Positions 12,303-23,401 of a DNA stretch of 64,000 nt are shown in pieces. The DNA lies in the NCBI GenBank assembly GCA_019566135.1, contig GCA_019566135.1_3044.1; one strand, 5' to 3'. A program made the translations under genes and the position numbers. The notes below the pieces were generated by a model. That model was not told the origin of the DNA. It was given only the letters and a program-made list of their open reading frames with translations, and searched no databases. Source of the DNA: a phage. Position 1 is the first letter of the stretch. The number at the start of each line of letters is the position of its first letter.

Positions 12303-15300
12303 ATGGCCGAGATTAAAAGAAAGTTCAGAGCAGAAGATGGTCTGGACGCAGGTGGTGATAAAATAATCAACGTAGCTTTAGCTGATCGTACCGTAGGAAC
12401 TGACGGTGTTAACGTTGATTACTTAATTCAAGAAAACACAGTTCAACAATATGATCCAACTCGTGGATATTTAAAAGATTTTGTAATCATTTATGATAAC
12501 CGCTTTTGGGCTGCTATAAATGATATTCCAAAACCAGCAGGAGCTTTTAATAGCGGACGCTGGAGAGCATTACGTACAGATGCTAACTGGATTACGGTTT
12601 CATCTGGTTCATATCAATTAAAATCTGGTGAAGCAATTTCGGTTAACACTGCAGCTGGAAATGACATTACGTTTACTTTACCGTCTTCTCCAATTGATGG
12701 TGATACTATCATTCTCCAAGATATTGGAGGAAAACCTGGAGTTAACCAAGTTTTAATTGTAGCTCCAGTGCAAAGTATTGTAAACTTTAGAGGTGAACAG
12801 GTACGTTCAGTACTAATGACTCATCCAAAGTCACAGCTAGTTTTAATTTTTAGTAATCGTCTGTGGCAAATGTATGTAGCTGATTATAGTAGAGAAGCTG
12901 TAGTTGTAACACCAGCGAATACTTATCAAGCGCAATCTAATGATTTTATCGTGCGTAGATTTACTTCTGCTGCACCAATTAATGTTAAACTTCCAAGATT
13001 TGCTAATCATGGCGATATTATTAATTTCGTCGATTTAGATAAACTGAATCCACTTTATCATACAATTGTTACTACATACGATGAAACGACTTCAGTACAA
13101 GAAGTTGGAACTCATTCCATTGAAGGCCGTACATCGATTGACGGTTTCTTGATGTTTGATGATAATGAGAAATTGTGGAGATTGTTTGACGGGGATAGTA
13201 AAGCACGTTTACGCATTATAACGACTAATTCTAATATTCGTCCAAACGAAGAAGTTATGGTATTTGGTGCGAATAACGGAACAACTCAGACAATTGAACT
13301 TCAGCTTCCTACTGATATTTCTGTTGGTGATACTGTTAAAATTTCCATGAATTACATGAGAAAAGGACAAACAGTTAAAATCAAAGCTGCAGGTGAAGAT
13401 AAAATTGCTTCTTCAGTTCAATTGCTGCAATTCCCAAAACGTTCAGAATATCCGCCTGAGGCTGAATGGGTTACAGTTCAAGAATTAGTTTTTAACGGTG
13501 AAACTAATTATGTTCCAGTTTTACAGCTTGCTTATATAGAAGATTCTGATGGAAAATACTGGGTTGTACAGCAAAACGTTCCAACTGTAGAAAGAGTAGA
13601 CTCTTTAAATGATTCTACTAGAGCAAGATTAGGCGTAATTGCTTTAGCTACACAGGCTCAAGCTAACGTCGATTTAGAAAATTCTCCACAAAAAGAATTA
13701 GCAATTACTCCAGAAACATTAGCTAACCGTACTGCTACAGAAACTCGTAGAGGTATCGCAAGAATAGCAACTACTGCTCAAGTGAATCAGAACACCACAT
13801 TCTCTTTTGCTGATGATATTATCATTACTCCTAAAAAGCTGAATGAAAGAACTGCTACAGAAACTCGTAGAGGTGTTGCTGAAATTGCTACGCAACAGGA
13901 AACTAATGCAGGTACTGATGATACTACAATCATCACTCCTAAAAAGCTTCAAGCTCGACAAGGTTCTGAATCATTATCAGGTATTGTAACCTTTGTATCT
14001 ACCGCGGGAGCTACTCCAGCTTCTAGTCGTGAATTAAATGGTACAAACGTTTATAATAAAAACACTAATAATTTAGTTGTTTCGCCTAAAGCTCTAGATC
14101 AGTATAAAGCTACTCCAACGCAACAAGGTGCAGTAATTTTAGCAGTTGAAAGTGAAGTAATTGCTGGACAGAGCCAAGAAGGATGGGCAAATGCGGTTGT
14201 AACGCCAGAAACGTTACATAAAAAGACATCAACTGATGCAAGAATTGGTTTAATTGAAATTGCTACGCAAAGTGAAGTTAATACAGGAACTGATTATACT
14301 CGTGCAGTCACTCCTAAAACTTTAAATGACCGTAAAGCAACTGAAAGTTTAAGTGGTATAGCTGAAATTGCTACGCAAGTTGAATTCGACGCAGGCGTCG
14401 ACGATACTCGTATCTCTACGCCATTAAAAATTAAAACTAGATTTAATAGTACTGATCGTACTTCTGTTGTTGCTCTATCTGGATTAGTTGAATCAGGAAC
14501 TCTCTGGGACCATTATACCCTTAATATTCTTGAAGCAAATGAGACACAGCGTGGTACACTTCGTGTGGCTACACAAGTTGAAGCTGCTGCAGGAACATTA
14601 GATAATGTTTTAATAACTCCTAAAAAGCTTTTAGGTACTAAATCTACCGAATCGCAGGAAGGTGTTATTAAAGTTGCAACTCAGTCTGAAACTGTGACTG
14701 GAACGTCAGCAAATACTGCTGTATCTCCAAAAAATTTAAAATGGATTGTGCAGAGTGAACCTACTTGGGCAGCTACTACTGCGATAAGAGGCTTTGTTAA
14801 AACTTCATCTGGTTCAATTACATTCGTTGGTAATGATACAGCTGGTTCTACGCAGGACTTAGAGCTATACGAGAAAAACAGCTATGCAGTATCACCATAT
14901 GAATTAAACCGTGTATTAGCAAATTATTTGCCATTAAAAGCAAAAGCTGCTGATACAAATTTATTGGATGGTCTAGATTCATCTCAATTCATTCGTAGGG
15001 ATATTGCACAGACGGTTAATGGTTCACTAACCTTAACTCAACAAACGAATCTGAGTGCCCCTCTTGTATCATCTAGTACTGCTACGTTTGGCGGATCAGT
15101 TTCGGCAAACAGCACATTAACTATTTCTAATACTGGAACGGCAACTCGTCTGATTTTTGAGAAAGGACCTCAAACTGGAACTAACCCAGTACAGACGATG
15201 ACTATCAGAGTTTGGGGAAATCAGTTTGGTGGCGGTTCAGATACAACACGTTCTACTGTATTTGAAGTTGGTGATGAAACGTCTAATCACTTTTATTCTC

Positions 15301-16172
15301 AACGCAATAAAGCTGGGAATATAACGTTTAGTATCAATGGTACTGTAATGCCAATAAATGTTAATGCTTCGGGTTCTTTGAATGCGAACGGCGTTGCAAC
15401 ATTTGGTAGTTCAGTTACAGCCAATGGCGAATTCATCAGCAAGTCTGCAAATGCTTTCAGAGCAATTAGTGGTGATTACGGATTCTTTATTCGCAATGAT
15501 GCTGCTAATACCTATTTTATGCTCACTGCATCCGGTGATCAGACTGGCGGATTTAATGGATTACGTCCTTTGTCTATTAATAATGCATCTGGCCAAGTAA
15601 CGATTGGTGAAAGCTTAATCATTGCCAAAGGTGCTACTATAAATTCTGGTGGTTTAACTGTTAACTCGAGAATTCGTTCTCAAGGTACTAAAACATCTGA
15701 CTTATATACCCGTGCGCCAACATCTGATACTGTAGGATTCTGGTCAATTGATATTAACGATTCAGCCACTTATAACCAGTTCCCGGGTTATTTTAAAATG
15801 GTTGAAAAAACTAATGAAGTGACTGGACTTCCGTACTTAGAACGTGGCGAAGAAGTTAAATCTCCTGGTACACTGACACAGTTTGGTAACACACTTGATT
15901 CGCTTTACCAAGATTGGATTACTTATCCAACGACACCAGAAGCGCGTACCACTCGCTGGACACGTACATGGCAGAAAACCAAAAACTCTTGGTCAAGTTT
16001 TGTTCAGGTATTTGACGGAGGTAACCCTCCTCAACCATCTGATATCGGTGCTTTACCATCTGATAATGCTACAATGGGGAATCTTACTATTCGTGATTTC
16101 TTACGAATTGGTAATGTTCGCATTATTCCTGACCCAGTGAATAAAACTGTTAAATTTGAATGGGTTGAATAA
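12303..16172 (+). CDS. 34: Long tail fibre proximal subunit gp34
   Basis: 1289 aa (same as T4 gp34); repeated ITPKKL...ATE(T/S)...G(I/V)A(E/R)IAT motifs. Confidence 0.93.
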   Translation: MAEIKRKFRAEDGLDAGGDKIINVALADRTVGTDGVNVDYLIQENTVQQYDPTRGYLKDFVIIYDNRFWAAINDIPKPAGAFNSGRWRALRTDANWITVSSGSYQLKSGEAISVNTAAGNDITFTLPSSPIDGDTIILQDIGGKPGVNQVLIVAPVQSIVNFRGEQVRSVLMTHPKSQLVLIFSNRLWQMYVADYSREAVVVTPANTYQAQSNDFIVRRFTSAAPINVKLPRFANHGDIINFVDLDKLNPLYHTIVTTYDETTSVQEVGTHSIEGRTSIDGFLMFDDNEKLWRLFDGDSKARLRIITTNSNIRPNEEVMVFGANNGTTQTIELQLPTDISVGDTVKISMNYMRKGQTVKIKAAGEDKIASSVQLLQFPKRSEYPPEAEWVTVQELVFNGETNYVPVLQLAYIEDSDGKYWVVQQNVPTVERVDSLNDSTRARLGVIALATQAQANVDLENSPQKELAITPETLANRTATETRRGIARIATTAQVNQNTTFSFADDIIITPKKLNERTATETRRGVAEIATQQETNAGTDDTTIITPKKLQARQGSESLSGIVTFVSTAGATPASSRELNGTNVYNKNTNNLVVSPKALDQYKATPTQQGAVILAVESEVIAGQSQEGWANAVVTPETLHKKTSTDARIGLIEIATQSEVNTGTDYTRAVTPKTLNDRKATESLSGIAEIATQVEFDAGVDDTRISTPLKIKTRFNSTDRTSVVALSGLVESGTLWDHYTLNILEANETQRGTLRVATQVEAAAGTLDNVLITPKKLLGTKSTESQEGVIKVATQSETVTGTSANTAVSPKNLKWIVQSEPTWAATTAIRGFVKTSSGSITFVGNDTAGSTQDLELYEKNSYAVSPYELNRVLANYLPLKAKAADTNLLDGLDSSQFIRRDIAQTVNGSLTLTQQTNLSAPLVSSSTATFGGSVSANSTLTISNTGTATRLIFEKGPQTGTNPVQTMTIRVWGNQFGGGSDTTRSTVFEVGDETSNHFYSQRNKAGNITFSINGTVMPINVNASGSLNANGVATFGSSVTANGEFISKSANAFRAISGDYGFFIRNDAANTYFMLTASGDQTGGFNGLRPLSINNASGQVTIGESLIIAKGATINSGGLTVNSRIRSQGTKTSDLYTRAPTSDTVGFWSIDINDSATYNQFPGYFKMVEKTNEVTGLPYLERGEEVKSPGTLTQFGNTLDSLYQDWITYPTTPEARTTRWTRTWQKTKNSWSSFVQVFDGGNPPQPSDIGALPSDNATMGNLTIRDFLRIGNVRIIPDPVNKTVKFEWVE

Positions 16173-16180
16173 GAGGTATT

Positions 16181-17296
16181 ATGGAAAAATTTATGGCAGA
16201 GTTTGGACAAGGATATGTCCAAACGCCATTTTTATCGGAAAGCAATTCAGTAAGATATAAAATAAGCATAGCGGGTTCTTGCCCGCTTTCTACAGCAGGA
16301 CCATACGTTAAATTTCAGGATAATCCTGTAGGAAGTCAAACATTTAGCGCAGGCCTTCATTTAAGAGTTTTTGACCCTTCCACCGGAGCATTAGTTGATA
16401 GTAAGTCATATGCTTTTTCTACTTCAAATGATACTACATCTGCTGCCTTTGTTAGTTTCATGAATTCTTTTTCAAGCAATAGACTTGTTGCTATATTAAC
16501 TAACGGAAAGGTTAATTTTCCTCCTGAAGTAGTATCTTGGTTAAGAACAGCAGGAACGTCTGCTTTTCCATCTGACTCTGTATTGTCAAGATTCGACGTA
16601 TCATATGCTGCTTTTTATACTTCTTCTAAAAGAGCTATTGCATTAGAGCATGTTAAACTGAGTAATAGAAAAAGCACAGATGATTATCAAACTATTTTAG
16701 ATGTTGTATTTGACAGTTTAGAAGACGTCGGAGCTACCGGGTTTCCAAGAAGAACGTATGAAAGCGTTGAGCAATTTATGTCAGCGGTTGGTGGAACTAA
16801 TAACGAAATTGCCCGTCTACCTACAGCATCTGCAATAAGTAAACTTTCTGACTATAATTTAATTCCTGGAGATGTTCTTTATCTTAAAGCACAACTATAT
16901 GCTGACGCTGATTTATTAGCGTTGGGAACTACTAATATTTCAATTCGTTTTTATAATGCGTCGAATGGATATATTTCCTCGACACAAGCTGAGTTTACTG
17001 GACAGGCTGGGTCTTGGGAATTAAAGGAAGACTATGTAGTTGTTCCAGAAAATGCAGTTGGATTTACGATATATGCACAGAGAACTGCTCAAGCGGGACA
17101 AGGCGGTATGCGAAATTTAAGCTTTTCTGAAGTATCAAGAAATGGCGGAATTTCAAAACCTGCTGAATTTGGCGTCAATGGTATTCGTGTTAATTATATT
17201 TGTGAATCTGCTTCACCTCCGGATATAATGGTACTTCCTACGCAAGCATCGTCTAAAACTGGTAAAGTGTTTGGGCAAGAATTTAGAGAAGTATAA
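16181..17296 (+). CDS. 35: Long tail fibre hinge protein gp35
   Basis: 371 aa; immediately after gene 34. Confidence 0.88.
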   Translation: MEKFMAEFGQGYVQTPFLSESNSVRYKISIAGSCPLSTAGPYVKFQDNPVGSQTFSAGLHLRVFDPSTGALVDSKSYAFSTSNDTTSAAFVSFMNSFSSNRLVAILTNGKVNFPPEVVSWLRTAGTSAFPSDSVLSRFDVSYAAFYTSSKRAIALEHVKLSNRKSTDDYQTILDVVFDSLEDVGATGFPRRTYESVEQFMSAVGGTNNEIARLPTASAISKLSDYNLIPGDVLYLKAQLYADADLLALGTTNISIRFYNASNGYISSTQAEFTGQAGSWELKEDYVVVPENAVGFTIYAQRTAQAGQGGMRNLSFSEVSRNGGISKPAEFGVNGIRVNYICESASPPDIMVLPTQASSKTGKVFGQEFREV

Positions 17297-17301
17297 ATTG
17301 A

Positions 17302-17327
17302 GGGAGCCTTCGGGTTCCCTTTTTCTT
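17302..17327 (+). terminator. Terminator-like hairpin after gene 35
   Basis: GGGAGCC-UUCG-GGUUCCC followed by UUUUUCUUU. Confidence 0.55.
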
Positions 17328-17335
17328 TATAAATA
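17328..17335 (+). promoter_or_regulatory. Late promoter TATAAATA for genes 36-37
   Basis: Exact TATAAATA 23 nt upstream of the gene 36 ATG. Confidence 0.7.
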
Positions 17336-17358: not shown

Positions 17359-18018
17359 ATGGCTGATTTAAAAGTAGGTTCAACAACCGGAGGCTCTGTC
17401 ATTTGGCATCAAGGAAATTTTCCATTGAATCCAGCCGGTGACGATGTACTCTATAAATCATTTAAAATATATTCAGAATATAATAAACCGCAGGCAGCTG
17501 ATAACGATTTCGTTTCTAAAGCTAATGGTGGTACTTATTTAAATAAGGTAATTTTTAATAAAGGAATGACTGTCCCTGGCGCAGGGTCAGGTGACAATGG
17601 TATTTTTGCTGGTCCTGGTGATAACGCCACGTATGATACTACAAATATAGATATTGTTTCGTGGTACGGTATTGGCTTTAAATCATCACAAGGTTCAGCA
17701 GCCCGAACTGTTGTAATTAATACACGTAATGGTGATATTAACACAAAAGGTGTTGTATCAGCATCAGGTCAAGTAAGAAGTGATGCGGCTGCTCCTATAG
17801 CAGCAAATGACCTTACTAGAAAGGACTACGTTGATAGAGCAATAAATACTGTTACAGCAAATGCGGATTCTAGAGTTTTACGCAAAGGTGATACCATGAC
17901 AGGTAATTTAACAGCGCCAAACTTTTTCTCACAGAATCCTGCGTCTCAACCTTCTCACGTTCCGCGATTTGATCAAATCGTAATTAAGGATTCTGTTCAA
18001 GATTTCGGCTATTATTAA
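17359..18018 (+). CDS. 36: Long tail fibre distal connector gp36
   Basis: 219 aa; position and size. Confidence 0.88.
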   Translation: MADLKVGSTTGGSVIWHQGNFPLNPAGDDVLYKSFKIYSEYNKPQAADNDFVSKANGGTYLNKVIFNKGMTVPGAGSGDNGIFAGPGDNATYDTTNIDIVSWYGIGFKSSQGSAARTVVINTRNGDINTKGVVSASGQVRSDAAAPIAANDLTRKDYVDRAINTVTANADSRVLRKGDTMTGNLTAPNFFSQNPASQPSHVPRFDQIVIKDSVQDFGYY

Positions 18019-18026
18019 GAGGACTT

Positions 18027-21000
18027 ATGGCTACTTTAAAACAAATACAATTTAAAAGAAGCAAAACCGCAGGCGCGCGTCCTGCTGCTTCAGTATTAGC
18101 CGAAGGTGAATTGGCTATAAACTTAAAAGATAGAACAATTTTTACTAAAGATGATTCAGGAAATATCATTGACTTGAGCATTTCCACTGGCGGCAATATC
18201 AGTGGAAATATCACTCAAACTGGTGATTATTTACAAAACGGCACGTATAATCTTAATGGAAACCAGTTTGTTTATGCAGGAAAATACATTGAATTTTTAC
18301 CTAAAACCGCTGGTAATGGTGCGTGGGCAAATCAACACCTCAATAAAGCTCCTATCTTTACAGATTTAAGTTCAACTACTTCTGTTTCAGAATATCATCC
18401 ACTCATTAAGCAGCGTTATAAAGATGGGACTTTTTCTGTTGGTACGTTAGTAAACGAAGGAAGTTTTAAAATTCATTATATTAATGAATCGGGAACTTCA
18501 AAATATTGGACATTTCGTAGAGATGGTGGATTTGTTGTTGATACAGGAAGTTTGACAGTAACAGATGGAAATATTTCTGCCTCTGGTAATATTAATTCAG
18601 CTACTGGGGTAGTTTCTGCTCCGCAGATTAATACAAAGACTATAGTTTTTGATACAAAAGCGTTCGGACAATATGATTCGCAGTCATTAGTTCAATATGT
18701 TTATCCTGGAACAGGTGAAGCAAACGGAATCAATTACCTTCGCAAATTCCGTGCTAAATCTGGTGGTACAATTTATCATGAATTAGCTTCTGCGCAAACC
18801 GGAAAAAGTGATGAACTTTCTTGGTGGACTGGTAATACAGCGGTTAATAAACAAATGGGCCTTCGCAATGATGGGTCTTTAGTACTACGACGTTCACTTG
18901 CAATTGGTACAATTACAACAGATGAAAACATCAATAACTACGGTTCCACTGGAGCAATGGGCGAATGTTATATAGTTATTGGTGATGCATCAACAGGTTT
19001 ATCATACAAAAAAACTGGGGTATATGACTTAGTTGCTAGTGGTCTTTCTGTAGCATCTATTACTCCTGATAGTTTCCGTAGTACGCGCAAAGCGATTTTT
19101 GGACGCTCGGAAGACCAAGGCGGTACGTGGCTTCTTCCTGGTCAAAACTCATCTCTTCTTTCAGTTCGTACTGAAGCTGACCAAAACAATAATGGAGATG
19201 GTCAGACACATATTGGCTATAATAGTAATGGTAAATTTTATCATTATTTTAGAGGCAGAGGAAGAATGGCCATTGGAATGGCCGAAGGACTTATTGTTGA
19301 ACCAGGAATTTTAGATATTAAAACTGGTTCAAATACATTAAGTTTGCGTGCTGATGGTACCGTCGCTTCTGTTCAAACATTAAAGCTTAATAATGGATTA
19401 TATTTTAATAGCGATGGAACTAACGCTTCTCTAATTTTTAAAGCAGCTTCAGGTATTGATGGTACTAAACAAATACTTTGGGAAGGTGGTACTCGTGCTG
19501 GGCAGAATAAGAGCTATGTAACTGCTAAAGCTTGGGGAAATTCATTTAATTCATCTGGCGATCGTAATCGTGAAACGGTTTTTGAAGTATCAGATGGACA
19601 AGGATATTATTTTTATGCTCAACGCGTAGCTCCTGCACCAGGTTCAACAACTGGTGCAGTTCAATTTAGAGTTGCCGGAGCATTATTAACTTCTGGCGGT
19701 ATTACATCATCTGGTTCTATTGTTACTGAATCTAGCTTAGTTGCAAATAATGGATTATCTGTAAATGGACAAGCTAAATTTGGTGGAACAGCAAATGCAT
19801 TAAGAATTTGGAATGCCGAATATGGCGCCATATTCCGTCGCTCAGAAACAGCATTGCACATTATTCCTACTCTTAAAGACCAAGGAGAAAATGGTGAAAT
19901 AGGTAATCTTCGTCCATTGAGCATCTCACTTAACAACGGTATGGTTCAAATGCGCCATTCTGTCACGTTAGGTGATGATGGTGCAGGCGGTAATATGGTG
20001 ACGGTTGATAATGATTCTAAAGTTATAGTAATGACGACTAATAGCCGTATTAGTCCTAACTTCCGTATGCAAATTGGACAGTCGTCTTATATTGATGTGG
20101 AATGTACTGATGCTGTGAGACCTGCTGGAGCCGGTTCTTTTGCTTCACAGAATAACGAAAACGTTCGCGCTCCGTTCTATATGAATATTGATAGAACAGA
20201 TACAAGCACTTATGTTCCTATTGTGAAACAAAGATACGTGCAAAATAATAGTTGCTATTCTATTGGTACTTTAATTAATGGTGGTAACTTTAGAGTTCAT
20301 TATCATGAAGGTGGCGATGGCGGTTCTACAGGCGCAATTATAAAAGATTTAGGATGGGAATTTAATAAAAACGGTGATTTTTATTCTCCTGGTAAATTAG
20401 GCGCTGGAAATATTAGAATAGGTACTGATGGTAATATCACGGGTGGTTCTGGTAACTTTGCTAACTTGAATACAACTTTAAACCGTAAAGTTAATTCTGG
20501 TTTTATTGCTTATGGAGCAACGGCAGGTTGGTACAAGTTTGCAACAGTAACAATGCCTCAAGCTACATCAACTGTTTCAATTACAGTCACCGGTGGAAAT
20601 GGATTTAATTCTGGGTCATTTAATCAGTGTGCAATTTCTGAAATTGTTCTTCGTACAGGAAACAATACTCCTAAAGGATTAAATGCTGTTCTATATAGAA
20701 GAGGACTAAATTCATTTAGAGATATTGCTTGGGTTAATACATCTGGTGATACATATGACATTTATGTTAATATGGGAACATATGCTAATCAGTTGATATT
20801 TAACTATAGTTCTGTTGATAACGCCACAGTTCAAATTATTGGCGCATTCAGCTCAGCTCAAAATCCTGTTGATGCATTGCCAGAAACATATGTTAAAGGT
20901 CAGGTAGCAGATGTATTGACTAACTTAGTTGATTCTGGAAAAACGAAGCGTTTTGTTGCTGAATCTGAAATAGCTGTTAATAATCAAACTGGATTACGTA

Positions 21001-21890
21001 TTACGAGTAACGGTGATAAATCTGGTTCAAATTCAGTATTATTCAGAAATGATGGCGGTAGTTTTTATATTCTTTTAACAGATAAAAACGCAGCAGATGG
21101 AAATACGACTGCTACAGAAGGAGATTGGAATGGTAAACGTCCTTTCCAAATTAATATGACTTCTGGTGAAGTAACATTTGGAAATAATATTAATATTTCT
21201 GGAAACGGAAGCATTAATTGGACAAAAGCCAGAGCAAACCCTAGAAATATGAGAATATTTCATGCAGGTGATGCTTCTCGTGGTAACCGTATTGAAATCG
21301 CAGATGATACTAACTATATTGCTTACTTTGAAAAAACTCCAGGTGGAGCTAACCGCTTTGTAGTAAATAATGCTACTGTAGCTGGTGTTAATCAAATGAA
21401 TTCATTTGGTATTAACATCAATAACGCGCTTGGTGGAAATAGTATAACATTTGGTGATAGCGATACTGGTATTAAGCAAAATGGCGATGGATTATTAGAC
21501 ATATATGCGAACAACGTACAAGTATTCCGTTTCCAAAACGGTGATTTGTACTCATACAAAAATATAAATGCTCCAAACGTTTATATTCGTTCTGATATTC
21601 GTTTAAAATCCAACTTCAAACCTATCGAAAATGCGCTTGATAAAGTTGAAAAACTTAACGGTGTCATTTACGATAAAGCTGAATATATCGGTGGAGAGGC
21701 AATTGAAACTGAAGCGGGTATTGTGGCTCAAACGTTACAAGACGTTTTACCAGAAGCTGTCCGTGAAACAGAAGACAGTAAGGGTAATAAAATACTCACT
21801 GTTTCTTCTCAAGCCCAGATTGCTCTTCTGGTTGAAGCTGTGAAAACACTTTCTGCTCGTGTAAAAGAACTTGAATCTAAACTTATGTAA
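18027..21890 (+). CDS. 37: Long tail fibre distal subunit gp37, T2-type with C-terminal intramolecular-chaperone-like domain
   Basis: 1287 aa; C-terminal ~100 aa (SDIRLKSNFKPIENALDKVEKLNGVIYDKAEY...) resembles autocleaving chaperone domains. Confidence 0.88.
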   Translation: MATLKQIQFKRSKTAGARPAASVLAEGELAINLKDRTIFTKDDSGNIIDLSISTGGNISGNITQTGDYLQNGTYNLNGNQFVYAGKYIEFLPKTAGNGAWANQHLNKAPIFTDLSSTTSVSEYHPLIKQRYKDGTFSVGTLVNEGSFKIHYINESGTSKYWTFRRDGGFVVDTGSLTVTDGNISASGNINSATGVVSAPQINTKTIVFDTKAFGQYDSQSLVQYVYPGTGEANGINYLRKFRAKSGGTIYHELASAQTGKSDELSWWTGNTAVNKQMGLRNDGSLVLRRSLAIGTITTDENINNYGSTGAMGECYIVIGDASTGLSYKKTGVYDLVASGLSVASITPDSFRSTRKAIFGRSEDQGGTWLLPGQNSSLLSVRTEADQNNNGDGQTHIGYNSNGKFYHYFRGRGRMAIGMAEGLIVEPGILDIKTGSNTLSLRADGTVASVQTLKLNNGLYFNSDGTNASLIFKAASGIDGTKQILWEGGTRAGQNKSYVTAKAWGNSFNSSGDRNRETVFEVSDGQGYYFYAQRVAPAPGSTTGAVQFRVAGALLTSGGITSSGSIVTESSLVANNGLSVNGQAKFGGTANALRIWNAEYGAIFRRSETALHIIPTLKDQGENGEIGNLRPLSISLNNGMVQMRHSVTLGDDGAGGNMVTVDNDSKVIVMTTNSRISPNFRMQIGQSSYIDVECTDAVRPAGAGSFASQNNENVRAPFYMNIDRTDTSTYVPIVKQRYVQNNSCYSIGTLINGGNFRVHYHEGGDGGSTGAIIKDLGWEFNKNGDFYSPGKLGAGNIRIGTDGNITGGSGNFANLNTTLNRKVNSGFIAYGATAGWYKFATVTMPQATSTVSITVTGGNGFNSGSFNQCAISEIVLRTGNNTPKGLNAVLYRRGLNSFRDIAWVNTSGDTYDIYVNMGTYANQLIFNYSSVDNATVQIIGAFSSAQNPVDALPETYVKGQVADVLTNLVDSGKTKRFVAESEIAVNNQTGLRITSNGDKSGSNSVLFRNDGGSFYILLTDKNAADGNTTATEGDWNGKRPFQINMTSGEVTFGNNINISGNGSINWTKARANPRNMRIFHAGDASRGNRIEIADDTNYIAYFEKTPGGANRFVVNNATVAGVNQMNSFGININNALGGNSITFGDSDTGIKQNGDGLLDIYANNVQVFRFQNGDLYSYKNINAPNVYIRSDIRLKSNFKPIENALDKVEKLNGVIYDKAEYIGGEAIETEAGIVAQTLQDVLPEAVRETEDSKGNKILTVSSQAQIALLVEAVKTLSARVKELESKLM

Positions 21891-21891
21891 A

Positions 21892-21909
21892 AGAGGGCTT
21901 CGGCCCTCT
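21892..21909 (+). other. Perfect stem-loop AGAGGGC-UUCG-GCCCUCU between genes 37 and 38
   Basis: 7-bp stem with UUCG loop; no U-tract; sits just before the gene 38 SD. Confidence 0.5.
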
Positions 21910-21920
21910 AAGGATTTTTA

Positions 21921-22712
21921 ATGGCAATTGTAGGTGTTCCTGGCTGGATTGGTGAATCTGCCGTGAATGAAACTGGACAACGCTGGATGGATGCTGCAAT
22001 GAAAGCAGTTCGCGTTTCAGTTCCTGGCTGGATGAGTTCAATGGCTGGACAATCTAAAGAAGTATATTATAGTGTTGGTGCTAGTAATTCTTATAATAAA
22101 GACACACTAATAAATTGGATAAAAGCTCAAGGCAGTACTCCTGTTGTTATTACTATTACAGGAAATATTGTTTCTCAATCTACTGGTGTTCCATGCTTAG
22201 ATTTTCCTAGCTCATTAACTAATGCGTATGTTACCTTAAATATTAATAGCGGGGTTCATGTATTAGGTCGGGGAGGAAATGGCGGAAGTAACTCTGCTGG
22301 TGGAGCAGGAGGAACTGCAATAAATAACGGAATTGGAACTCGTTTAAGAATAAACAATAACGGTATTATTGGTGGCGGTGGCGGTGGCGGCGCTGGTGCT
22401 AGATACCATCCTTTCCCTCAAATGGATATGATATTTGGTGGCGGCGGAGGTCGTCCATTTGGCGCTGCTGGCGCAGCAGGAGGTGGCGCAGCGGCAGCAT
22501 CTGCTGGTACAATTTCTGCTCCTGGTAAAGGTACTGTTTCTGGGGTTCACTATGGAGGAAATGGTGGAGATTTGGGAGCTGCTGGCAAATCTTCATATAT
22601 TCAAGGTGGTACTGGAGGAACTGTTCACTCGGGTGGTGCTGCGGGTAAAGCTGTTACTGGTAATGCTCCAACTTGGACTAAAGTTGGTACAATATACGGT
22701 TCAAGAGTATAA
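21921..22712 (+). CDS. 38: Receptor-recognising adhesin gp38, T2-type with glycine-rich motifs
   Basis: 263 aa; poly-Gly/Ala segments (GGGGGGGAGA, GGGGRPFGAAGAAGGGAAAA) separated by variable segments. Confidence 0.85.
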   Translation: MAIVGVPGWIGESAVNETGQRWMDAAMKAVRVSVPGWMSSMAGQSKEVYYSVGASNSYNKDTLINWIKAQGSTPVVITITGNIVSQSTGVPCLDFPSSLTNAYVTLNINSGVHVLGRGGNGGSNSAGGAGGTAINNGIGTRLRINNNGIIGGGGGGGAGARYHPFPQMDMIFGGGGGRPFGAAGAAGGGAAAASAGTISAPGKGTVSGVHYGGNGGDLGAAGKSSYIQGGTGGTVHSGGAAGKAVTGNAPTWTKVGTIYGSRV

Positions 22713-22744: not shown

Positions 22745-23401
22745 ATGGCAGCACCTAGAATATCATTTTCGCCCTCTGATATTCTATTTGGTGTTCTAGA
22801 TCGCTTGTTCAAAGATAACGCTACCGGGAAAGTTCTTGCTTCCCGGGTAGCTGTCGTAATTCTTTTATTTATGATGGCGATTGTTTGGTATAGGGGAGAT
22901 AGTTTCTTTGAGTACTATAAGCAATCAAAGTATGAAACATACAGTGAAATTATTGAAAAGGAAAGAAATGCACGCTTTGAATCTGTCGCCCTGGAACAAC
23001 TCCAGATAGTTCATATATCATCTGAGGCAGACTTTAGTGCGGTGTATTCTTTCCGCCCTAAAAACTTAAACTATTTTGTTGATATTATAGCATACGAAGG
23101 AAGATTACCTTCGACAATAACAGAAAAATCACTTGGAGGATATCCTGTTGATAAAACTATGGATGAATATACAGTTCATTTAAATGGACGTCATTATTAT
23201 TCCGATTCAAAATTTGCTTTTTTACCAACTAAAAAGCCTACTCCCGAAATAAACTACATGTACAGTTGTCCATATTTTAATTTGGATAATATCTATGCTG
23301 GAACGATAACCATGTACTGGTATAGAAATGATCATATAAGTAATGACCGCCTTGAATCAATATGTGCTCAGGCGGCCAGAATATTAGGAAGGGCTAAATA
23401 A
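22745..23401 (+). CDS. t: Holin
   Basis: 218 aa; MAAPRISFSPSDILFGVLDRLFKDNATGKVLASRVAVVILLFMMAIVWY... matches T4 holin. Confidence 0.93.
   Translation: MAAPRISFSPSDILFGVLDRLFKDNATGKVLASRVAVVILLFMMAIVWYRGDSFFEYYKQSKYETYSEIIEKERNARFESVALEQLQIVHISSEADFSAVYSFRPKNLNYFVDIIAYEGRLPSTITEKSLGGYPVDKTMDEYTVHLNGRHYYSDSKFAFLPTKKPTPEINYMYSCPYFNLDNIYAGTITMYWYRNDHISNDRLESICAQAARILGRAK

Follow-up and report, generated by a model that had tools for sequence, protein, structure and literature searches.

Which kind of receptor-binding end does this phage carry on its long tail fibres, and which receptor does it recognise? From the letters of a 64,000-nt stretch of phage DNA (the window), the initial annotation read positions 18027–22712 as a T2-type receptor-binding module, made up of a long gp37 with a self-cleaving, chaperone-like end and a glycine-rich gp38 adhesin. 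Both open reading frames were found at these positions and their families were confirmed by Pfam. They belong to a gene block with the order 34-35-36-37-38-t, the tail-fibre/lysis block of a Tequatrovirus, and the minus-strand ORFs of the region are no longer than 106 aa and all lie within the plus-strand genes for gp37 and gp38 (ORF list). The explanation as a whole, which we hold with high confidence, is that the module is the standard receptor-binding end of the long tail fibre of a T2-like E. coli phage in Tequatrovirus. Reading it as a T2-type tail-fibre tip is correct, and such a tip is already well described, textbook knowledge; T2 gp37 and gp38 were reportedly studied by Drexler, Riede and Henning in 1986–1989. 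The genes and elements of the block are as follows.

17328..17335, + strand: late-promoter box of the T4 type, TATAAATA, preceding gene 36
17359..18018, + strand: gp36, distal hinge connector and attachment point of the gp37 N-terminus (Pfam Phage_T4_gp36, E=1e-37)
18027..21890, + strand: gp37, the long tail fibre distal subunit, 1287 aa (ORF; phrog_1699 over its full length)
21892..21909, + strand: intercistronic C(UUCG)G hairpin (stem of 7 bp), immediately ahead of the gp38 Shine-Dalgarno AAGGA
21921..22712, + strand: gp38 adhesin, 263 aa (Pfam, 6F45_D, identical deposited adhesins)
22745..23401, + strand: holin t, the downstream neighbor (Pfam Phage_holin_T, E=1e-116)

As the box scan found a late-promoter box before gene 36 and none directly before 37, 38 or t, genes 36-37-38-t probably share a single late transcript. 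Scanning for sigma-70 promoters and terminators gave counts at chance level, with the hairpins alone noteworthy; the C(UUCG)G hairpin is conserved in T6 and S16 with different stem sequences. Holin t is not a fibre component and closes the conserved block. A search for gp57A at 27–31 kb, guided by the T6 annotation, gave nothing recognisable, and that T6 annotation looks unreliable.

The initial annotation had ended gp37 in a chaperone-type domain of about 100 aa. This was borne out, as SDIRLKSNFKPIENALDKVEKLNGVIYDKAEY begins at residue 1189 (nt 21591) and leaves a C-terminal domain of 99 aa, the extreme end of the 1287-aa fibre protein. Its assignment as an intramolecular chaperone (IMC) rests on a Pfam match, a Ser-Lys motif and identity to the processed end of T2 gp37. 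The two parts of this end are:

21474..21590, + strand: T2-type distal tip of mature gp37, aa ~1150–1188, ending ...NAPNVYIR (98–100% identical to T2)
21591..21887, + strand: gp37 IMC, aa 1189–1287, 10.8 kDa (Pfam, alignments)

Residues 1189–1246 of gp37 match PF13884 Peptidase_S74 ("chaperone of endosialidase") with 56.5 bits (cut-off 22, E=3.4e-15), and the match spans profile positions 1–58 of 58. The domain opens with S1189-D-I-R-L-K1194, which has the form S-D-x-R-x-K with the conserved Ser and a Lys five residues on. SDIRLK aligns with SDRRIK of S16, and an SDxRxK motif is present in T6 too. Over the last ~140 aa, gp37 is 98–100% identical to T2 gp37, the IMC itself being identical. Residues 1131–1285 can be aligned with 6F45_A, the tip construct of S16 gp37, and a further match, over the C-terminal 117 aa, is to 7DC3, the autoprocessing domain of MYRF. 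Among IMG/VR loci, 22 encode a gp38_N-type adhesin, and in every one of them the fibre gene upstream closes with SDxRxK plus 94–117 aa, VYIR preceding the motif in most. Cleavage of gp37 is thus predicted, from the motif and from its relatives, between R1188 and S1189 (NVYIR^SDIRLKS), which would reduce the 138 kDa precursor to a mature form of 127 kDa.

Two known systems put this end in context. In S16 (PDB 6F45; Dunne et al. 2018), gp37 likewise bears an IMC with the S-D-x-R-x-K autocleavage motif, and gp38 consists of an N-terminal attachment domain plus a glycine-rich sandwich. According to PMC7917993, citing Dunne 2018, the S16 IMC autocleaves at DLNVS^SDRRIKK, baring the gp38 docking surface. 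The S16 proteins differ in that the residues before the cleavage site are DLNVS instead of NVYIR, gp37 is far shorter (749 aa), gp38 is 48% identical and binds Salmonella OmpC. Endosialidases and T5 pb1 (PF13884) share the C-terminal self-cleaving trimerisation chaperone with its Ser-Lys dyad, but there the protein's own exposed tip binds or cleaves the receptor, whereas cleavage here would create the docking site of a separate adhesin. We predict by analogy that the N-terminal domain of gp38 docks onto aa ~1150–1188 of gp37.

The adhesin itself, which the initial annotation took to be a gp38 of 263 aa, is encoded on the plus strand and belongs to the T2/T6/S16 family by Pfam and by alignment. 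It matches Pfam GP38 PF05268 with 232.2 bits (cut-off 25, E=8e-69), Gp38_N PF21721 with 64.7 bits (cut-off 25, E=7e-18) and phrog_2056 (E=2e-101), and its alignment to 6F45_D, the S16 adhesin of known structure, is full-length (E=1e-48). Its composition is 23% Gly and 11% Ala. Its domains and variable segments are:

21921..22046, + strand: N-terminal attachment domain, aa 1–42, T2 subtype (Gp38_N; alignment)
22266..22709, + strand: glycine-rich specificity domain, aa 116–263 (entropy, GC profile)
22287–22301, + strand: variable segment, aa 123–127 (entropy analysis)
22398–22433, + strand: variable segment, aa 160–171 (entropy analysis)
22470–22499, + strand: variable segment, aa 184–193 (entropy analysis)
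22530–22556, + strand: variable segment, aa 204–212 (entropy analysis)
22584–22631, + strand: variable segment, aa 222–237 (entropy analysis)

W9, W22 and W37 of the attachment domain are invariant in the adhesin alignment. This T2-type N-terminus is paired with the T2-type gp37 tip encoded directly upstream, across an intergenic gap of 30 nt. The proposal that glycine-rich segments are split by variable loops agreed with the column entropy over aa 111–263, which averaged 0.66 at Gly and 1.70 at non-Gly positions among 19 distinct adhesins; the Ala/Gly run at 184–193, however, proved to be one of the variable segments and not conserved scaffold. A single-sequence AlphaFold2 model of gp38 had a mean pLDDT of 33 and was unusable, so the fold assignment rests on homology to 6F45_D, which over the full length implies a polyglycine-II sandwich.

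Local GC richness at 22340–22620 was also as described, with a GC of 0.512 where the window averages 0.353 (sd 0.036, 281-nt windows), and the 281-nt window with the highest GC in the entire 64 kb (0.544) starts at 22361. In the C-terminal part of gp38, GC at codon positions 1/2/3 is 0.63/0.67/0.20. As it is elevated only at positions 1 and 2, the rise reflects Gly and Ala codons, not foreign composition, and a foreign GC-rich origin of the gp38 3′ half was ruled out by the third-position value. The DNA is repetitive to the extent that GGN/GCN codons form short, imperfect repeats (a GGTGGC unit of 6 nt in 3.3 tandem copies, and families of 12–21 nt at 68–93% identity), but not in the sense of true DNA repeats, and a search of the gp38 DNA for inverted repeats found none. 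A repeat-driven cassette or diversity-generating mechanism was rejected, given that these repeats are short and at the level of Gly/Ala codons and that inverted repeats were not found.

Our model for the assembled tip is that gp37 would be made as a 1287-aa precursor, in which the 99-aa Peptidase_S74-type IMC would nucleate trimer folding of the fibre tip and would then release itself by Ser-Lys autoproteolysis at R1188/S1189. The exposed tip ...NVYIR would be capped by gp38, docking via its Trp-bearing N-terminal domain. The adhesin would then present a glycine-rich sandwich of the polyglycine-II type, with the variable loops contacting the receptor. Riede et al. are said to have placed gp38 in the virion of T2-type phages in 1987. 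A position at the virion fibre tip is known for T2-type phages and S16 (PMC3157838; PDB 6F45), and from these relatives we infer the same for the gp38 described here.

Two other arrangements of the tip were weighed against this model. If the S74-like domain were degenerate and non-cleaving, the C-terminus of gp37 would be kept in the mature fibre. This is very unlikely: Ser and Lys(+5) are intact, the motif is kept throughout the 22 related loci, the identical domain of T2 gp37 is processed (reported in 1986; Drexler 1986, via PMC3157838), and docking of S16 gp38 needs the IMC removed, according to PMC7917993. In the T4 arrangement gp38 is an assembly chaperone outside the virion and receptor binding falls to the tip of gp37, and several records of gp38 homologues do carry the labels "tail assembly protein" or "distal long tail fiber assembly catalyst". 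These labels are transferred T4 names, though, and T4 gp38 is an unrelated protein (PMC3157838). The gp38 described here matched the adhesin families PF05268 and PF21721 alone, with no other Pfam family, and so none of the assembly chaperone families of T4-type gp38, at E≤0.01. It resembles T2 gp38 and the S16 adhesin crystallised on the gp37 tip, and gp37 has its own IMC within a T2-like end. T4 gp37 is not known to carry an IMC or a T2-type tip. A T4-type role for gp38 is accordingly extremely unlikely, and we retain the self-cleaving gp37 capped by a gp38 adhesin.

The receptor is where this phage appears to depart from T2. The two share gene order, the gp37 end with its IMC and the gp38 N-terminal subtype. 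Aligning gp38 with its T2 counterpart recovered the T2-subtype N-terminus but not T2-like variable segments, which are unrelated, the proteins being 63% identical overall. T2 uses FadL (PMC8594841), whereas the allele carried here matches those of Tsx binders. JLBYU24, Geo, TB37 and T-01 carry a gp38 with 100% identity to it, and across these phages, AV114/AV115 and Bas43 (TadeuszReichstein) identity is 98.9–100%. Compared with AV109, AV114 and AV115, aa 111–263 are identical and the sole differences fall at aa 48, 49 and 52; a single residue (Q228K) separates it from Bas43. AV114 and AV115 use Tsx (PMC10844046), and for Bas43 the supplementary table of PMC8594841 lists Tsx together with the LPS deep core. 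The specificity domain is thus identical or nearly so to those of experimentally Tsx-dependent phages, which points to Tsx and not FadL, and by analogy the receptor of this allele is most probably the outer membrane nucleoside channel Tsx. It follows that "T2-type" describes the architecture and the pairing of gp37 tip with gp38 N-terminus, not the receptor.

Recognition of another or additional receptor, whether FadL or OmpF (as with T2 and related phages) or OmpA (as with neighboring gp38 clades), would fit the T2 subtype of the gp38 N-terminal domain and gp37 tip. Specificity can also shift or broaden with few residues: single substitutions in hypervariable segments (HVS) have this effect in SV76 vs T2 and PST vs T6 (PMC3157838), OmpA is the receptor of AV108, whose similar adhesin differs in HVS3/4 (PMC10844046), and residue 228, Q here and K in Bas43, sits within a variable segment. 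Even so, this is unlikely, as the identity to AV114/AV115 covers the whole of aa 111–263 and the variable segments are unrelated to those of T2. Tsx remains the predicted primary receptor.

The sole new element at this locus is the gp37 shaft, a unique mosaic joined to a conserved tip and gp38:

18177..21473, + strand: gp37 mosaic shaft, aa ~51–1149 (50-aa block identities; singleton 90% cluster)
19224..20126, + strand: divergent central gp37 segment, aa ~400–700 (42–84% identity to teqsoen)

In clustering of about 15 billion proteins at 90% identity gp37 was a singleton, no other member reaching at least 90%. The closest full-length relative, teqsoen gp37, is also 1287 aa long and is 89% identical in global alignment. 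The shaft is 90–100% identical to it per 50-aa block except in the central segment, whose best DNA matches are vB_Eco_EL (90%) and ECP2301 (93%) and within which a domain at aa 507–633 shares homology with the trimerisation domain of gp34. Teqsoen gp38, however, is another allele, 84–85% identical with the divergence in the variable segments. Every phage carrying the identical gp38 has a shaft unlike this one: identities are 16–86% in most 50-aa blocks, and 94–100% only at aa ~700–850. In the Bas43, AV114/AV115 and JLBYU24 group, gp37 is 1312 aa long and about 67% identical overall, the shaft here being of a teqsoen-like lineage; compared with T2, whose gp37 has 1341 aa and so exceeds the 1287 aa found here by 54, the shaft is 68% identical. 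DNA identity to JLBYU24 is 100% beginning near nt 21490, across gp38 and for ~400 nt past it, and stays at 94–100% per 100 nt over a further ~1.1 kb. The layout is thus a conserved N-terminus, a teqsoen-like shaft with aa 400–700 replaced, a gizh-type tip and a Tsx-type adhesin. That shaft composition may tune host range independently of gp38, through O-antigen or capsule reach or secondary LPS contacts, is unlikely; if it were true, comparing this phage with JLBYU24 and Bas43 would be a test, provided by nature, of the same adhesin on a different shaft.

Beyond annotation these findings matter little. The phage gains a predicted primary receptor label, Tsx, a help in designing cocktails and in foreseeing resistance through tsx loss, and the misleading assembly labels on gp38 homologues are corrected. 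The locus adds a further example of fibre mosaicism, in which exchange points at the conserved ends of gp37 keep the tip-adhesin pair together.

The gp37 gene (distal subunit of the long tail fibre) and the gp38 gene (glycine-rich adhesin capping the gp37 tip) were recovered by ORF calling and Pfam searches exactly where they had first been placed, as plus-strand ORFs within a block of fibre genes. The block and its associated elements were as follows:

12261, TATAAATA box before gene 34
12303-16172, gp34
16181-17296, gp35-like hinge connector
within 17300-17335, UUCG-loop hairpin carrying a T-run, GAGGGAGCC-TTCG-GGTTCCCTT TTTC, immediately after gene 35
17328-17335, T4 late-promoter box TATAAATA, after that hairpin and before gene 36
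17359-18018, plus strand, gp36
18027-21890, plus strand, gp37, 1287 aa
21892-21909, C(UUCG)G-type hairpin AGAGGGC-TTCG-GCCCTCT, -13.4 kcal/mol
21921-22712, plus strand, gp38, 263 aa
22745-23401, plus strand, holin t

Minus-strand ORFs around gp37 and gp38 were short and nested within the fibre-block genes. Over the flanking 24 kb, identity to Tequatrovirus genomes (GiZh among them) is ~97%, which assigns the window to a T4-like E. coli phage. The gp35 product matched an ILEI/FAM3-type domain (PF15711, E=1e-7, aa 58-127), an unexpected family for a phage hinge protein. The hairpin at 21892-21909 fills the 30-nt gap from the gp37 stop codon to the gp38 Shine-Dalgarno, and was kept in T2, teqsoen, Bas43 and JLBYU24. 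As T6 (GGGGC-TTTG-CCCC) and S16 (AGAGCC-TACG-GGCTCT) carry hairpins with other stems, a conserved RNA structure is suggested, possibly an mRNA stabiliser, an attenuating terminator or a translational coupling element. The gene-35 hairpin and the TATAAATA boxes together resemble a terminator and promoters that punctuate the fibre operon.

The initial annotation had proposed a chaperone-like domain of ~100 aa at the gp37 C-terminus, and this was borne out. The domain (99 aa, 10.8 kDa, beginning at residue 1189) covered the full profile of Pfam PF13884 (Peptidase_S74, "chaperone of endosialidase") at 56.5 bits, with a cut-off of 22 bits, and contains the Ser/Lys(+5) motif SDIRLK. Alignments were obtained with the C-terminal part of S16 gp37 expressed as 6F45_A, and with the autoprocessing domain of MYRF. 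The final 115 residues are identical in T2 gp37, and the final ~140 are 98-100% identical. According to PMC3157838, processing of the T2 gp37 C-terminus has been in the literature since 1986. PMC7917993, citing Dunne et al. 2018, describes autocleavage of the S16 intramolecular chaperone (IMC) at DLNVS^SDRRIKK, which exposes the gp38 docking surface, and a predicted R^S site after DVYIR in related phages. With NVYIR^SDIRLKS at this position, autocleavage of our gp37 is expected between R1188 and S1189. As an independent check, we surveyed 22 IMG/VR loci whose products include one bearing the N-terminal domain of gp38. In all 22 the upstream fibre gene ends in SDxRxK plus 94-117 residues, mostly preceded by VYIR, which argues that the IMC-bearing fibre and its gp38_N-type cap are an obligate pair. 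Some larger T4-like genomes (~175-183 kb contigs; loci L018, L020-L025, L027, L028) carry the attachment domain on short proteins of ~155-174 aa, with a non-glycine-rich C-terminal part (Gly fraction ~0.1). Since an IMC-bearing fibre gene still lies upstream, these appear to be a different adhesin head on the same docking system.

The whole length of gp38 was covered by Pfam GP38 (E=8e-69) and Gp38_N (E=7e-18). Two gp38 proteins of solved structure aligned with it over its full length: the S16 adhesin 6F45_D, known from a crystal (E=1e-48), and 9V85. No Pfam match to any tail-fibre assembly chaperone family was found; homologues labelled "tail assembly protein/catalyst" thus bear transferred T4 names. 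The expected alternation of glycine-rich and variable segments was confirmed across 19 distinct adhesins: within aa 111-263 Gly positions are nearly invariant (mean entropy 0.66), whereas the segments between them vary (1.70), with variable blocks at aa 123-127, 160-171, 184-193, 204-212 and 222-237. The same arrangement of glycine-rich motifs and hypervariable segments is described in PMC3157838. In the attachment domain, W9, W22 and W37 were invariant across the alignment. Because the Ala/Gly run 184-193 falls inside a variable block, it belongs to the allele and not to the scaffold. The gp38 DNA had been called locally GC-rich and repetitive. The first part held (GC is 0.512 over 22340-22620 and averages 0.353 across the window; of all 281-nt stretches in the 64 kb, the one beginning at 22361 is the richest, 0.544), but repeats were only short, imperfect and codon-level. 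GGN and GCN codons account for all of the GC rise, since codon positions 1/2/3 of the C-terminal part have GC of 0.63/0.67/0.20, with the third matching the AT-richness of the remaining genome.

The gp38 protein is 100% identical in vB_Eco_T-01, TB37, Geo and JLBYU24, 99.6% identical in Kha5h and TadeuszReichstein (Bas43, differing by Q228K), and 98.9% identical in AV109/114/115, whose differences (residues 48, 49 and 52) all lie outside the specificity domain. Tsx use was shown experimentally for AV114 and AV115 (PMC10844046), Bas43 is tabulated with Tsx as primary and LPS deep core as terminal receptor (PMC8594841 supplement), and the receptor is shared among closely related gp38 proteins (PMC12032242). 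On these grounds we predict Tsx as the receptor here. In contrast, T2 gp38, aligned as the initial annotation had proposed, agreed in family and architecture but shared only 63% identity, its variable segments being unrelated, and T2 uses FadL (PMC8594841). The description "T2-type" is thus apt for architecture and tip/cap pairing, not for the receptor.

We consider a five-step mechanism, as a whole, very probable. Late transcription would run from the TATAAATA box at 17328 through 36-37-38-t; gp37 trimerisation would begin from the C-terminal IMC; the IMC would be released by Ser1189/Lys1194-mediated autocleavage, as in T2 and S16; gp38 would dock on the ...NVYIR tip via its Trp-bearing N-terminal domain, as in 6F45; and the variable loops of its glycine-rich sandwich would bind Tsx, judging from the identical alleles. 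Taken as a whole, the original observation was confirmed and its interpretation supported. The gp37/gp38 module is a well-characterised, already known system, and the questions of processing, virion gp38 and receptor have been settled on sequences that are the same or nearly so.

The new element here is the gp37 shaft mosaic. In clustering at 90% identity, the protein stands alone as a singleton. Its exact sequence in NCBI nr is EHY1316489.1, "tail fiber domain-containing protein [Escherichia coli]"; as this sole deposit sits on a 17.8-kb contig filed under Escherichia coli, its source is probably a bacterial isolate assembly with lytic-phage contigs, not a curated phage genome. Teqsoen gp37, of equal length, is 89% identical (90-100% per 50-aa block, save aa ~400-700 at 42-84%). 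This central block is closest to other phages (90-93% DNA identity) and includes a homologue of the gp34 trimerisation domain. Segments homologous to that C-terminal domain (gp34 aa 949-1108, 15147-15626) lie at gp37 aa 482-649 (19470-19973) and aa 999-1064 (21021-21218), with 31% and 39% identity and the common motif FRND..Y.LT...G.NG.RP..IN..SG.V..G, a structural module that recurs in the proximal and distal half-fibres. JLBYU24 (Tequatrovirus gizh) DNA is 100% identical from ~nt 21490 to ~400 nt past the end of gp38, and 94-100% per 100 nt in the ~1.1 kb after that, yet its shaft reaches just 16-86% identity in most 50-aa blocks, with 94-100% confined to aa ~700-850. This argues that, between an N-terminal ~50 aa and a tip that are both conserved, the shaft was swapped for one of another lineage. 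Such exchange is the usual mosaic behaviour of these fibre genes, and it leaves the matched tip-IMC-gp38 unit whole.
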